A DNA stretch of 64,000 nucleotides from Chitinophagales bacterium. Its GTDB lineage: Bacteria > Bacteroidota > Bacteroidia > Chitinophagales > Chitinophagaceae. Positions 57,084 to 64,000 of this stretch are shown in pieces. The stretch covers positions 10,108-74,107 of the forward strand of contig JANPJC010000283.1 of NCBI GenBank assembly GCA_031425315.1, written 5' to 3'. Position numbers and translations under genes: made by a program. The notes beneath the pieces were generated by a model. The model saw only the letters and a list, made by a program, of their open reading frames with translations. It did not search any database and had not been told where the DNA came from. Position 1 is the first letter of the stretch, and each line of letters opens with the position of its first letter.

Positions 57084-57467
57084 TCAATCTTTTACAACCG
57101 GCTTTCCCTCTTCTTTCCATGCCTTAATGCCCCCATCCAAAGAATACACCTGTGTATATCCATTTTTCGTCAGCCAATCTGCTGCCTTTAAACTCCTGAC
57201 GCCAGCAAGGCAGTAAACATACACCGGTTTCGATTTGTCCAATACTTTCACATTTTTTAAAAATGCCTCTTGGTCATTCCAGTCTGCCAATGTAGATCCT
57301 TTTAAATGCCCGTCTTTATATTCATCGGGTGTGCGTACATCAAGAAGTTGGGCATTCTCTTTTTTCAATCCACTGTCAAAAGCTTTTACATCCACTGTTT
57401 TTACAGATTGGGCCTGAATAACGAACGTAAAAGCCAATGCTAAGGAGAGGCAGAGTATTTTAGACAT
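57084..57467 (-). CDS. secreted rhodanese-like sulfurtransferase domain protein
   Basis: Signal peptide. Rhodanese fold with active-site loop YCLAGVRS. Confidence 0.8.
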   Translation of the reverse strand: MSKILCLSLALAFTFVIQAQSVKTVDVKAFDSGLKKENAQLLDVRTPDEYKDGHLKGSTLADWNDQEAFLKNVKVLDKSKPVYVYCLAGVRSLKAADWLTKNGYTQVYSLDGGIKAWKEEGKPVVKD

Positions 57468-57550
57468 GATATAAATTATTAAGTTATTAATCGTTTCTGT
57501 TGCAAAGTTAGGTTTTTCGGCCGAGGTGAAAACCTGATAGGTCTTAGCAG

Positions 57551-58324
57551 CTAAAAACCACTCCGAAGCATTACAGCGTAGCCGTTTGGGAGCGGACTTC
57601 CTTCTACTGCCTGCGCTGCCTTTTCCACGTCGTATTCGAACCTGATAAATTCAACTTTAACGCTTTCAATTTCTACAATACTACTCTGTTCGTTGATGTG
57701 AAGCATAACATAACCCCCACGTGGATCTTTATCTTTAGGTTTTCCTATTGAACCAATATTGATGGCGTGCAAAAAGTGTAAAGTATTTTCATTCTGCGAA
57801 GTCATAATCTTATGGTAAGGCTTGTGTGTGTGACCAAAACACATGATATGTGCGTTGACATCTTTCATCATCCTGATCAAACTTTTATCTTCCCTGTCTT
57901 CAAACAGATATTCGTTGATTTTACGGGGACTACCATGCACAAGCAGCAGATTCATCTTGTCATCATTTAACTGAAATTCAAGCCGTATGTGAGCAGGTAA
58001 ACTTCGGAGATATTTTCTATTGCCTTCTTTCATTATAGAATTGGTATAAGAAATTGACACCTGTCCCATTGCTTTCTCTTCATCCGTTTTATATGCACAT
58101 CCGCATTCATCACTGGCACGTCCAATACCGAAATCATAATTGCCGGCAATACATGGAATTCCTTTTGCGCGGATCAGTTCAATTACTTCATTTGGCCAGA
58201 TATTATATCCTACAAGGTCGCCGAGGCAATAAATCATATCTGGTTTTTGTTCTTCAACACTCCCGAAAAAACTTTCCAGTGCGGGAAGATTAGCATGTAT
58301 ATCACTAAATAATGCAATTCGCAT
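57551..58324 (-). CDS. metallophosphoesterase family protein
   Basis: MRIALFSDIHAN, GDLVGY, GNYD and GHTH motifs. Confidence 0.75.
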   Translation of the reverse strand: MRIALFSDIHANLPALESFFGSVEEQKPDMIYCLGDLVGYNIWPNEVIELIRAKGIPCIAGNYDFGIGRASDECGCAYKTDEEKAMGQVSISYTNSIMKEGNRKYLRSLPAHIRLEFQLNDDKMNLLLVHGSPRKINEYLFEDREDKSLIRMMKDVNAHIMCFGHTHKPYHKIMTSQNENTLHFLHAINIGSIGKPKDKDPRGGYVMLHINEQSSIVEIESVKVEFIRFEYDVEKAAQAVEGSPLPNGYAVMLRSGF

Positions 58325-58333
58325 AAAACAATT

Positions 58334-59383
58334 TTAGATGACTTTCTTTATATAATATTTTCTTCTGAAATAAAAAGCAAGATTTACTAAAGCGATCAAT
58401 GCAGGTACTTCCACCAACGGTCCAATTACACCCGCAAAAGCCTGACCGCTGTTAATTCCGTATACCCCGATGGCAATGGCAATAGCAAGTTCAAAATTAT
58501 TTCCGGCAGATGTAAAAGCAAGTGAAGTATTTTCAGGATAGTCTGCACCGATTTTTTTGCCCATCATAAAACTGAGCACAAACATCACCACAAAATAAAT
58601 CACCAGCGGGATAGCGATCCTAACCACATCCAATGGAATGATTATAATCAGATTTCCCTTTAAACTAAACATGACAATTATCGTGAACAGTAATGCAAGC
58701 AATGTAATCGGTGAAATAAAAGGAATAAAATTTTGGTAATACCAGGCCTCACCTTTCAGTTTAATCATTACTAATCGCGTTAACATTCCAGCCGCAAATG
58801 GTACTCCCAGGTAAAGCAGTACGGACCTGGCCACCTGCAATATTGAAATATTAATTTCCATTGCCCTGATGCCGAAATATGGAGGTAACACTGTAATAAA
58901 TATCCAGGCATATACCGCATATAAAAGCACTTGGAACAAACTGTTGACAGCAACCAGTCCTGCAGCATATTCCCTGTTGCCGTCAGCCAATTCATTCCAC
59001 ACCATCACCATGGCAATACATCTTGCTATTCCGATCAACATCAGTCCTGCAAAGTATTCCGGATAATCGCGAAGAAATATCACTCCCAAAAGGAACATTA
59101 ACACGGGGCCGATCACCCAGTTGAGCGAAAGCGCCAACTGAAGCATTTTTACATTTCTGAAAACCTCGAAAATCTTTTCGTATTTCACTTTTGCCAATGG
59201 TGGATACATCATCAGTATTAATCCAATCGCTAATGGTATATTAGTTGATCCTTCACTCATTGAGCCAATCCTTTCAGGTATCTCTGGTATAAAATAACCT
59301 GCTGCCACTCCTGCAATCATCGCTAGTAAAATCCAGCCGGTAAGGTATCTGTCTAAAAACGAAAGCTTTTTCCGCGTCATCAT
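58334..59383 (-). CDS. acr3: ACR3-family arsenite efflux transporter
   Basis: N-terminal [23 protein letters not shown], 10 TM. Strong resemblance to ACR3/ArsB-type permeases. Confidence 0.85.
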
Positions 59384-59437
59384 TAAATTATTTGATGTAA
59401 TGGATATATTTAATCACATTCATTTGGCTGGCCACCA

Positions 59438-62065: not shown

Positions 62066-63121
62066 TTACTCAATTATAGCTCCACCGCATCCAGAACCCG
62101 CACCCGCTGTACATCCGTAGCAATGCTGATTCACAACAATATTCCGGCTCAACAATTTTTCAGGATTATAATCTGAGATATGATCTACAGTGCTGTCTAC
62201 TTTTAACTCAAGCATCTGGTTAAAATCACAATCATATAAATAGCCATCCCACCCCACCGATAGAGTGTTCCGGCACATCAACCCTTGTATGGCTGCCGGA
62301 TTAAATGCATCTAACAATTTCTGCATATATTTTTCATAATTGCCGCTTTCGAGCAAATACTCGAGGTACCTGCTCACCGGCATGTTGGTTATAGTAAGCA
62401 GTTGATTGAATTCAATATCAAAATCTTTTTTCAAAGAATGTTTAAATTCATTTTCCAACAATAGTTGCGCTGCAGGTAAAAACGCACCGGCTGGATTATA
62501 AACCAATTTTAGTACCAATCCCGAACCTTCTTTACCATATCCCACCTCATTCAACATTTTCAAAGCCTTTATACTTTCTTCAAAAACACCAGTTCCCCGC
62601 TGACTGTCTGTACGCGCTTTTGTATAGAATGGAAGCGACGATACGACTTCCACATTATGTTGTTTAAAAAATTCCGGCAAATCATTGTACTTTTTATTGG
62701 CCACTATTATAGTAAGATTACACCTTACAATAATGTGCCGGTTAAGCGAAAACACCTGTTCAACAAACCAACGGAAATCAGGATTCATTTCAGGTGCACC
62801 ACCTGTAAGGTCTACGGTGGTAAGACCAGGATTTTTTTTCAAACTTTCAATACAAAATCCCATCACCTCTCTGCGCGTAATTTCTTTCCTGTCGGGCCCT
62901 GCATCAACATGACAATGGCGGCAAACCTGGTTACACATCTTACCCATATTGATTTGCAGTATGGATGTACTAACCGGGGTGAGCGGGAACCGTCCATGTT
63001 TCATCAACATTTCATCAAATGCCGGAATCGTTTGACCGTTACCGTGAATACCATGCTCCAGCACTTCTAGTTGTTCAGTACTTTCTGCTAATTTATTTCC
63101 CTTCGCTTTTGAAGATTTCAT
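62066..63121 (-). CDS. arsS: arsenosugar biosynthesis radical SAM protein ArsS
   Basis: CNQVCRHC radical-SAM cluster motif and C-terminal Cys-rich tail CYGCTAGAGSGCGG characteristic of ArsS (TIGR04167). Confidence 0.8.
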   Translation of the reverse strand: MKSSKAKGNKLAESTEQLEVLEHGIHGNGQTIPAFDEMLMKHGRFPLTPVSTSILQINMGKMCNQVCRHCHVDAGPDRKEITRREVMGFCIESLKKNPGLTTVDLTGGAPEMNPDFRWFVEQVFSLNRHIIVRCNLTIIVANKKYNDLPEFFKQHNVEVVSSLPFYTKARTDSQRGTGVFEESIKALKMLNEVGYGKEGSGLVLKLVYNPAGAFLPAAQLLLENEFKHSLKKDFDIEFNQLLTITNMPVSRYLEYLLESGNYEKYMQKLLDAFNPAAIQGLMCRNTLSVGWDGYLYDCDFNQMLELKVDSTVDHISDYNPEKLLSRNIVVNQHCYGCTAGAGSGCGGAIIE

Positions 63122-63130
63122 TACGACATT

Positions 63131-63466
63131 TTACATTGCAATTTCTTTCACCTTATTCATCATCTGTACACCATGTACCAATGAAGAACCTCCACGGATA
63201 GCAGCTGCAACATGTACAGCCTCCATCATTTGTTCCTTGCTCCAGCCTTTTTCAAATGCATCATTACTATATGCATCAATACAATACGGACATTGAACTG
63301 TGTGAGCCACTGCCAAAGCGATTAATGATTTTTCCCTGGCGGTAAGGTCCCCTTCTTCGAAAACTTTACCATACCATTCAAAAAATTTATCACCCATCGC
63401 TTTTTGAAATTCTGTTATACTCCCGAATTTGCCGAGATCTTCGGCATTGTAATAATGATTTGACAT
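63131..63466 (-). CDS. AhpD/carboxymuconolactone-decarboxylase-like 'arsenosugar biosynthesis-associated peroxidase-like' protein (start moved to MSNHYY)
   Basis: CMD-fold with HTVQCPYCIDAY CxxC motif. Adjacent to arsS. Confidence 0.65.
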   Translation of the reverse strand: MSNHYYNAEDLGKFGSITEFQKAMGDKFFEWYGKVFEEGDLTAREKSLIALAVAHTVQCPYCIDAYSNDAFEKGWSKEQMMEAVHVAAAIRGGSSLVHGVQMMNKVKEIAM

Positions 63467-63470
63467 AAAA

Positions 63471-63986
63471 TTATTGATAATGGTTAAGGTATAAAGTCCA
63501 GTCATATTCTTTAAACCGCACAACAGGATTCGCATCTGCTTTGATGATGCCTAATTTTTTTATTAAGCTTACCATTTTTTTCTTACCCCCAAAATCATTC
63601 CTGAACCAGCTCATAATGGCGGGGAGATACAGGATATTTGCGGTACTATCATATATCACTTCTGCGCTGAGGTATGCCCTTTCGGCCAAACCCAGTTGCC
63701 TGTTTATATTTTCAGGTTCATAAAATGCAATAGGAGGGCAACTTTTTGCCCCGCAATTTAATGCAAAATGAATCCGATAATCAGTTCGTGCCACCCGTTC
63801 TGCTTTTTCCCTTTTACTTTTAAGTAGCTTCTTAAAATATCCCCCACTCCATTTCACTGCAGATCTTCTCAATATGCCGTGCTCAATATCGTCAAGACTG
63901 TACAAATGTCCGCCAATATTAATTGCAGGATTTTTAAAAAATTTTCCTCTTTTTTTGTATAGGTTTGAGTCAGCTTTTAACATCAC
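63471..63986 (-). CDS. DUF547 domain protein (5' end may extend beyond the first ATG or the window edge)
   Basis: HFALNCGAKSCPP motif typical of DUF547. Confidence 0.55.
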   Translation of the reverse strand: MMLKADSNLYKKRGKFFKNPAINIGGHLYSLDDIEHGILRRSAVKWSGGYFKKLLKSKREKAERVARTDYRIHFALNCGAKSCPPIAFYEPENINRQLGLAERAYLSAEVIYDSTANILYLPAIMSWFRNDFGGKKKMVSLIKKLGIIKADANPVVRFKEYDWTLYLNHYQ

Positions 63987-64000
63987 CTGTGTATAGGCAT

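Follow-up and report, generated by a model that had tools for sequence, protein, structure and literature searches.

We analysed a 64-kb stretch of contig JANPJC010000283.1 from a Chitinophagales bacterium (assembly GCA_031425315.1), here called the window, in which two known arsenic gene modules stand side by side at the edge formed by position 64000. The inner module, on the minus strand from 60666 to 57551, is an ars operon with genes for the repressor ArsR, the As(III) S-adenosylmethionine (SAM) methyltransferase ArsM, the arsenite efflux permease ACR3 and a metallophosphoesterase. The outer module runs from beyond 64000 to 61457 on the minus strand, with a glycosyltransferase gene (GT2) on the plus strand, and corresponds to the arsenosugar gene set around the radical SAM enzyme ArsS. 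On balance, we judge it somewhat probable that the two modules can together convert arsenate into an arsenoriboside. All components are members of known families, and it is their juxtaposition that is rare. All ten genes listed in an earlier annotation of this DNA (the original prediction) are present and intact in the list of open reading frames (ORFs) where it had placed them, and the motifs it quoted for ArsR, ArsM, ArsS and an AhpD-like protein were all found in the translations.

The arsenosugar gene set and the ars operon

We scored the encoded proteins with hidden Markov models (HMMs) against the curated cut-offs of NCBIfam, with Pfam in agreement. ArsS (62066..63121, minus strand) reaches 438.3 bits on TIGR04167, for which the cut-off is 300, and 185.8 bits on PF12345 (DUF3641). 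This margin of 138 bits, together with a score of only 30.4 bits on the next radical-SAM family, TIGR04053, settles the two points on which the original prediction had staked this assignment, namely a score above cut-off and membership of this radical-SAM subfamily. The enzyme carries the CX3CX2C motif as C63-NQV-C67-RH-C70 and has a C-terminal CYGCTAGAGSGCGG and the C-terminal cysteines C334, C337 and C345. The AhpD-like CxxC (CPYC) protein (63131..63466, minus strand) scores 179.1 bits (cut-off 120) on TIGR04169, a model named 'arsenosugar biosynthesis-associated peroxidase-like protein'. The DUF2064 protein (61457..62065, minus strand), a CofC-like putative nucleotidyl or sugar transferase (25.1 bits on CofC), scores 196.9 bits (cut-off 134) on TIGR04282 and matches PDB 3cgx, described as a 'putative nucleotide-diphospho-sugar transferase', with E = 3e-29.

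GT2 (60766..61452, plus strand; PF00535, 62.2 bits) is of the TIGR04283 type and, at 181.7 bits, falls 0.3 bits short of the cut-off of 182. This shortfall carries no weight, since the orthologue of GT2 in the closest relative, a 6.47-Mb JGI contig (L083/L084), is 67% identical and scores 199.7 bits, above the cut-off. The claim that a TIGR04167/04169/04282/04283 set lies next to an arsM/acr3 operon is upheld, with three models passed and the fourth missed by this fraction of a bit. The remaining member is the 3' part of a DUF547 gene (63471..64000, minus strand; PF04784, 89.4 bits), whose 5' end lies beyond the window; its orthologue in the JGI contig encodes 261 amino acids (aa), is 76% identical and shares a conserved NCGAKSCPP motif. 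Sequence searches found no solved structures for ArsS or DUF547, and the window holds no arsenosugar-type ArsM (NF038099), phosphorylase, acyltransferase or glyoxalase-fold gene.

The ArsS cluster had been described as divergent from the ars operon. This is right for GT2, one of its five genes, but not for DUF547, AhpD, ArsS and DUF2064, which lie on the minus strand upstream of the ars operon and co-directional with it. Because the gaps between these four genes are 4, 9 and 0 nt, with AhpD starting 4 nt past the DUF547 stop and DUF2064 abutting the ArsS stop codon, they form a tight operon. GT2 is the sole plus-strand gene and the only arsenosugar gene to share a spacer (99 bp) with the divergent arsR; at its other end it converges on DUF2064, and 4 nt separate the two stop codons. 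As predicted, the cluster passes the window edge, the DUF547 frame being still open at base 64000. A 1761-bp contig that is 99.8% identical to the window and extends 166 bp beyond it (L081) carries DUF547 on by 56 codons, with no start reached. Exact-protein look-ups led to this contig through AhpD and to a 9.4-kb contig (L082, ending within ArsS) through the metallophosphoesterase, and found nothing for ArsS and ACR3. The rest of the boundary comes from synteny with the JGI contig, by which DUF547 would be the first gene of its operon and a divergent purine nucleoside phosphorylase gene would probably stand just beyond base 64000. Scans gave 18 sigma-70 sites against 24 expected from shuffled sequence and 6 terminators against 5 expected; we left them unused because they do not model Bacteroidota promoters.

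In the ars operon, ArsR (60337..60666, minus strand) scores 70.5 bits on NF033788 (cut-off 55) and 45.6 bits on PF01022. ACR3 (58334..59383, minus strand) scores 434.3 bits on TIGR00832 (cut-off 282.8), with profile positions 1-327 of 327 covered, and ArsM (59438..60283, minus strand) scores 365.9 bits on NF008823 (cut-off 263). The roles of ArsM, ACR3 and ArsR in arsenic detoxification are standard knowledge. The ArsM gene is real, but the 322-aa ORF first assigned to it was over-extended and overlapped arsR. Only from residue 44 of that ORF onwards does it match the family. On L082, which is near-identical to the window (the two ACR3 proteins differ by one residue), ArsM was called from the ATG at 60283, giving 281 aa; this is the likely start.

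ArsM has the motif SSCCGAGGC near its N-terminus and SCCGPDCC at its C-terminus. The cysteines of its CC, GCG, NCV and GCV motifs, which we take to be the four catalytic cysteines of ArsM, have aligned counterparts among the cysteines of a solved ArsM structure (5evj). On the arsenosugar-type model NF038099 the protein scores 100.3 bits, far from the cut-off of 400, and the ArsM embedded in one related ArsS cluster (L007) scores 563.3 bits. By these scores, the window ArsM is of the canonical and not of the arsenosugar-specific type.

A probable arsenate reductase and candidate operators

The original prediction noted that no ArsC-type reductase is present. No ArsC homologue was indeed found in the 64 kb (best tblastn E 0.12, with R773 and pI258 ArsC queries), but the remark is misleading, as the metallophosphoesterase (57551..58324, minus strand; PF12850, 74.8 bits) fits the Car1 type. 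Metallophosphoesterases of ars operons have been found to resemble Car1, the As(V) reductase of Rufibacter tibetensis (PMC12124457, a 2025 paper), in which Cys74 and Cys76 are reported to be essential (Shen et al., 2024, as cited in PMC12124457). At this place the window protein has GRASDE-C74-G-C76-AYK. All of 120 close homologues share C74, G75 and C76 and have GNYD in place of the canonical GNHD motif, and most of the dimetal ligands (D8, H10, D36, N62, H165 and H167) are invariant among them as well. The nearest solved metallophosphoesterase, PDB 3rqz, is gapped where the CGC insert stands.

We then considered the genomic context of this protein in 45 metagenome loci, each 6 kb or longer and encoding a metallophosphoesterase 66-75% identical to that of the window. 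Upstream and on the same strand, ArsR is found in 41 of the 45, ArsM in 29 and ACR3 in 25. Because Cys74 and Cys76 are invariant in the 120 homologues and ArsR lies upstream in 41/45 loci, a reductase is probably present, and the metallophosphoesterase is probably a Car1-type arsenate reductase. The ars operon of Chitinophaga rhizophila (L085) contains in addition a second metallophosphoesterase paralogue, 52% identical, in which GNHD is kept and the CGC insert is absent, and an ArsN1a-like acetyltransferase (137.6 bits, cut-off 170); the coordinates listed for them are 10786-11523 and 7788-8276, respectively.

The cysteines of ArsR are C41 and C43 (C41-I-C43-GD), C80, C82, and C108 and C109 in a C-terminal GCC. 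Its place among ArsR/SmtB repressors is indicated by the winged-helix helix-turn-helix match, by C41/C43 and C108/C109 as candidate As(III)-binding residues and by a conserved palindrome at its own promoter. This 16-bp palindrome, ATCGTAATATTGCGAT, here called O1, occupies 60671-60686, 4 nt upstream of the arsR ATG, and is the only exact copy in the window. The same 16 bp are identical in the JGI contig while the remaining spacer has diverged. Exact copies precede arsR at 22 of the 48 metagenome loci compared, and most of the remaining loci show variants with one mismatch, usually no more than ~40 nt from where arsR starts; in the 2.2 Mb of locus sequence there are only 30 exact occurrences. 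A second site with two mismatches, O2 (ATCGTAATATTACAAT; 60303..60318), lies in the arsR-arsM spacer and is kept at the same place in the JGI contig (9083-9098). From this conservation we infer that O1 and O2 are candidate ArsR operators. The position of O2 suggests a separately repressed promoter for arsM, acr3 and the metallophosphoesterase gene. Control of the ArsS operon by ArsR was considered and is not supported, as no operator-like site besides O1 and O2 was found in the window or near the ArsS operon of the JGI contig.

Conservation and setting of the locus

Among GTDB species representatives we found at least 598 stretches matching ArsS, which makes ArsS clusters widespread in Bacteroidota, and we compared the best 80 of these. 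Among the matches listed, the best ArsS relative is 70% identical and comes from Parafilimonas, and the top 80 all belong to Bacteroidota lineages. Gene content was counted on the 43 loci with full 10-kb flanks. Near ArsS, an AhpD-like gene is found in 41/43 loci, DUF2064 in 28, the arsenosugar ArsM (NF038099) in 18, GT2 in 17, a purine nucleoside phosphorylase in 16, DUF547 in 13 and a rhodanese in 11. A canonical ArsM, ArsR, ACR3 or Car1-like protein is found in none of the 43.

The only other case of the two modules in juxtaposition is the JGI contig, where ArsS is 80%, ArsM 89% and AhpD 95% identical to the window proteins. The order there is phosphorylase (minus strand), DUF547-AhpD-ArsS-DUF2064, GT2 (minus strand), ArsR-ArsM-metallophosphoesterase, HSP20 (minus strand), rhodanese-LysE and ATPase (minus strand). 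ACR3 is missing between ArsM and the metallophosphoesterase (9961-10001), and the rhodanese is preceded by an inserted HSP20 gene on the opposite strand (10816-11256). The ars operon has therefore been remodelled, by loss of ACR3 and gain of HSP20, while its juxtaposition with ArsS was kept. Between the window (61457-62065) and the JGI contig (7334-7942), DUF2064 is 55% identical and GT2 67%, and their neighbours 80-95%; judged by these identities, the two candidate late-step enzymes are diverging unusually fast.

Related ArsS clusters carry further genes. In a Chitinophagales metagenome-assembled genome (L018), the first gene of the ArsS operon encodes a thioredoxin/ResA-like domain fused to DUF547 (8374-9633), and this fusion hints at a thiol-redox role for DUF547. 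The same cluster includes a PlsC-like acyltransferase (11746-12876), as do 6/80 ArsS loci in all, which hints at lipid-linked arsenosugar products. A glyoxalase/VOC-fold protein of ~350 aa, without counterpart in the window, stands beside the TIGR04283 glycosyltransferase in 7/80 loci (L007, at 12779-13834, L011, L018, L025, L027, L032 and L034). A secreted rhodanese lies between ArsS and DUF2064 in 17/80 ArsS loci of other Bacteroidota. Rhodanese genes of this NF045521 type are found at about 11.0-13.8 kb in the full-length loci, and those sampled (L034, L036, L014, L062, L044, L052 and L058) mostly have signal-peptide-like N-termini. The DUF547 protein of L055 (8878-9657) has one too, and that of the JGI contig has none. 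Because of these N-termini on the rhodaneses and the L055 DUF547 protein, part of the arsenosugar gene set may act extracytoplasmically.

The window has a rhodanese of its own (57084..57467, minus strand; PF00581, 75.7 bits), a single-domain protein predicted to be secreted from its signal-peptide-like N-terminus, MSKILCLSLALAFTFVIQAQS. The original prediction had placed it in the ars operon. It does lie on the same strand, 83 nt downstream of the metallophosphoesterase, but its membership is doubtful, since rhodanese genes occur in 0/45 related ars operons and in the JGI contig the HSP20 gene separates it from the metallophosphoesterase. In that contig, as in the window, it stands directly upstream of a LysE-family transporter gene (56447..57049, minus strand; PF01810 recorded for the same gene on L082), which is 89% identical there and marks the edge of the arsenic genes. 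Neither the 45 metallophosphoesterase loci nor the 80 ArsS loci were found to contain a LysE gene; LysE is the conserved partner of the rhodanese. We also considered the window protein as an ArsS-cluster rhodanese and rejected this on its NF045521 score of 74.2 bits (cut-off 145), which covers profile positions 14-117 of 144 only, without the C-terminal extension; on this model ('rhoda_near_glyco'), the rhodaneses of the L034 and L036 clusters reach 190.8 and 217.2 bits.

Downstream of LysE (51983-56442) follow a P-type cation ATPase (840 aa), on whose gene the LysE gene converges, a PfkB-family kinase and a 182-aa ORF. The orthologous flank of the JGI contig holds an ATPase, PfkB, a Usp protein and a DUF1003 protein, with the common genes in the same order, and these flank genes look unrelated to arsenic. 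The word 'island' in the original prediction does not stand in its mobile sense. GC content is 0.39-0.40 throughout the region, the same as in the rest of the window, the window has no tRNA genes, and the JGI contig shows synteny for the flanking LysE, P-type ATPase and PfkB genes. Composition, tRNA boundary and absence from relatives all fail to mark a mobile island, though no search was aimed at integrases or transposases. The locus appears to be a stable chromosomal arrangement and not a mobile island, because the JGI contig keeps it; the even GC and the lack of tRNA genes fit.

A possible route from arsenate to arsenoribosides

Taken together, the gene families suggest the following scheme. 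The ars module would be an arsenite-inducible operon for detoxification and methylation, in which ArsR would bind ATCGTAATATTGCGAT upstream of arsR and the weaker copy before arsM and would be released by trivalent arsenic. The Car1-type metallophosphoesterase would reduce As(V) to As(III) via Cys74 and Cys76, ACR3 would export As(III), and ArsM would convert As(III) to MAs(III) and DMAs(III). In the arsenosugar module, ArsS would transfer the 5'-deoxyadenosyl group of SAM onto DMAs(III), forming 5'-deoxy-5'-dimethylarsinoyl-adenosine (DDMAA), the reaction described for this enzyme (PMC13598754); the ArsS of Synechocystis sp. PCC 6803 has been characterised (Xue et al., 2019; Cheng et al., 2021, as cited by others). 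The canonical ArsM is likely the supplier of DMAs(III), because there is no dedicated arsenosugar ArsM in the window or in the cluster of its relative. For the steps after ArsS we infer that a purine nucleoside phosphorylase, placed beyond the window edge by synteny, would remove adenine, and that the CofC-like DUF2064 protein and GT2 may activate the dimethylarsinoyl-ribose and pass it on to an acceptor, for instance glycerol. Roles in thiol or arsenic redox are proposed for the AhpD-like CxxC protein and DUF547.

A stronger form of this scheme can be put forward only tentatively. Here a heterotrophic soil Bacteroidota would encode, within ~7 to 8 kb if the predicted phosphorylase is counted, a compact route under arsenic regulation that leads from arsenate to an arsenoriboside and is made up of Car1, a canonical ArsM replacing the dedicated one, ArsS, the phosphorylase, the DUF2064 nucleotidyltransferase and GT2.

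Several observations weigh against a coupled route. The two modules are separate transcription units, and their co-occurrence is exceptional, with canonical ArsM, ArsR, ACR3 or metallophosphoesterase within 10 kb of ArsS in 0/80 loci and an ArsS-cluster gene in 0/45 metallophosphoesterase loci, so that the adjacency could be incidental. There is no operator-like site near the ArsS operon of the JGI contig, and the window ends before the sequence upstream of DUF547. Other parts of the genome could hold a dedicated arsenosugar ArsM or a phosphorylase. The partner genes are named by association alone, and the comparison with Car1 draws on the features reported for that enzyme. In the searchable literature, experimental support is confined to the ArsM and ArsS steps of arsenosugar synthesis in a cyanobacterium; we found there no report of an arsenosugar from heterotrophic Bacteroidota, no product from Bacteroidota ArsS clusters and nothing on the function of the partner genes.

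These observations leave room for the view that the modules are mere neighbours, in which the ars operon is self-contained and the ArsS cluster is independent, draws on any source of DMAs(III) and has its own regulation. The absence of such adjacency from both comparison sets speaks for it, as do the opposite-strand gene between the two transcription units and the lack of an operator-like site by the ArsS operon of the JGI contig. We nevertheless find it unlikely, since a second species retains the juxtaposition, with ArsS at 80% and ArsM at 89% identity, despite the loss of ACR3 and the insertion of HSP20; both of these loci, moreover, are without the cluster-embedded NF038099 ArsM seen in 18/43 relatives, and ArsS requires a dimethylated trivalent substrate, which is the product of ArsM (PMC13598754). 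The end product may also differ from the one proposed. The PlsC-like acyltransferase of 6/80 related clusters, the 350-aa glyoxalase-fold protein of 7/80, the signal peptides on cluster rhodaneses and some DUF547 proteins and the lack, in the searchable literature, of functional tests of TIGR04282, TIGR04283 and TIGR04169 would all accommodate a Bacteroidota cluster that makes another adenosyl- or ribosyl-arsenical, such as an arsenosugar lipid or an exported detoxification product, in place of a classical glycerol or phosphate arsenosugar. We regard this as improbable here: the window has neither an acyltransferase nor a glyoxalase-fold gene, and its ArsS is an equivalog-level match to a family whose cyanobacterial member makes the arsenosugar precursor.

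A last alternative concerns only the first step. With no ArsC found, a rhodanese 83 nt downstream on the same strand, and most dimetal ligands retained by the metallophosphoesterase, the latter could be a true phosphoesterase without redox role and the rhodanese an arsenate reductase of the Acr2/Cdc25 type. Acr2 and Cdc25 reductases have five residues between the active-site Cys and Arg. The CLAGVR loop of the window rhodanese has four, its N-terminus resembles a signal peptide, and it is absent from all 45 related ars operons and apart from the operon in the JGI contig; on these grounds we rejected it as an Acr2-like reductase. The metallophosphoesterase, for its part, is unlike ordinary members of its family in its invariant CGC insert and in the His-to-Tyr change in GNHD. 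We give this alternative very little probability.

In marine algae and seafood, arsenic is present mainly as arsenosugars. If true, the compact route from arsenate to arsenoriboside would assign the late steps of arsenosugar synthesis and make non-phototrophic bacteria a source of these compounds. The locus offers independent genomic support for the action of Bacteroidota ArsS clusters on arsenic and for Car1-type metallophosphoesterases as the usual arsenate reductase of these ars operons. Because a probable reductase, a methyltransferase, ArsS and the late-step candidates lie within 7 kb beside an arsenic sensor, it would also be a convenient construct for heterologous reconstitution of the pathway. 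Every component is in a curated family that NCBI models would name, and the publication on Car1 dates from 2024. For reconstitution, the rare adjacency and the apparent substitution of ArsM offer useful leads, though both are unsurprising in kind.

Three known systems invite comparison. The metallophosphoesterase shares with Car1 its fold, cysteines at exactly positions 74 and 76 and, again in a Bacteroidota, a gene that closes an arsR-arsM-acr3 operon. The ars operon as a whole resembles the arsR-arsM-acr3-metallophosphoesterase operon of Chitinophaga rhizophila and of the 45 metagenome loci in gene order and strand, in its ArsR (47-80% identical in the metagenome loci, 61% in C. rhizophila) and in the candidate operator ATCGTAATATTGCGAT upstream of arsR; it differs in adjoining an ArsS cluster, with whose GT2 it shares the 99-bp spacer, and in the rhodanese-LysE pair that follows it. 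With the Synechocystis-type ArsS gene set the locus has in common all four families in adjacency, at (TIGR04283, 0.3 bits short) or above their cut-offs, the radical SAM motif, the Cys-rich DUF3641 tail and an ArsM gene close by. Unlike that set, it belongs to a non-photosynthetic Bacteroidota host, its ArsM is of the NF008823 type within an efflux operon putatively controlled by ArsR, in contrast to the NF038099 type of 18/43 clusters, and its arsenosugar operon is led by DUF547, without an NF045521 rhodanese.

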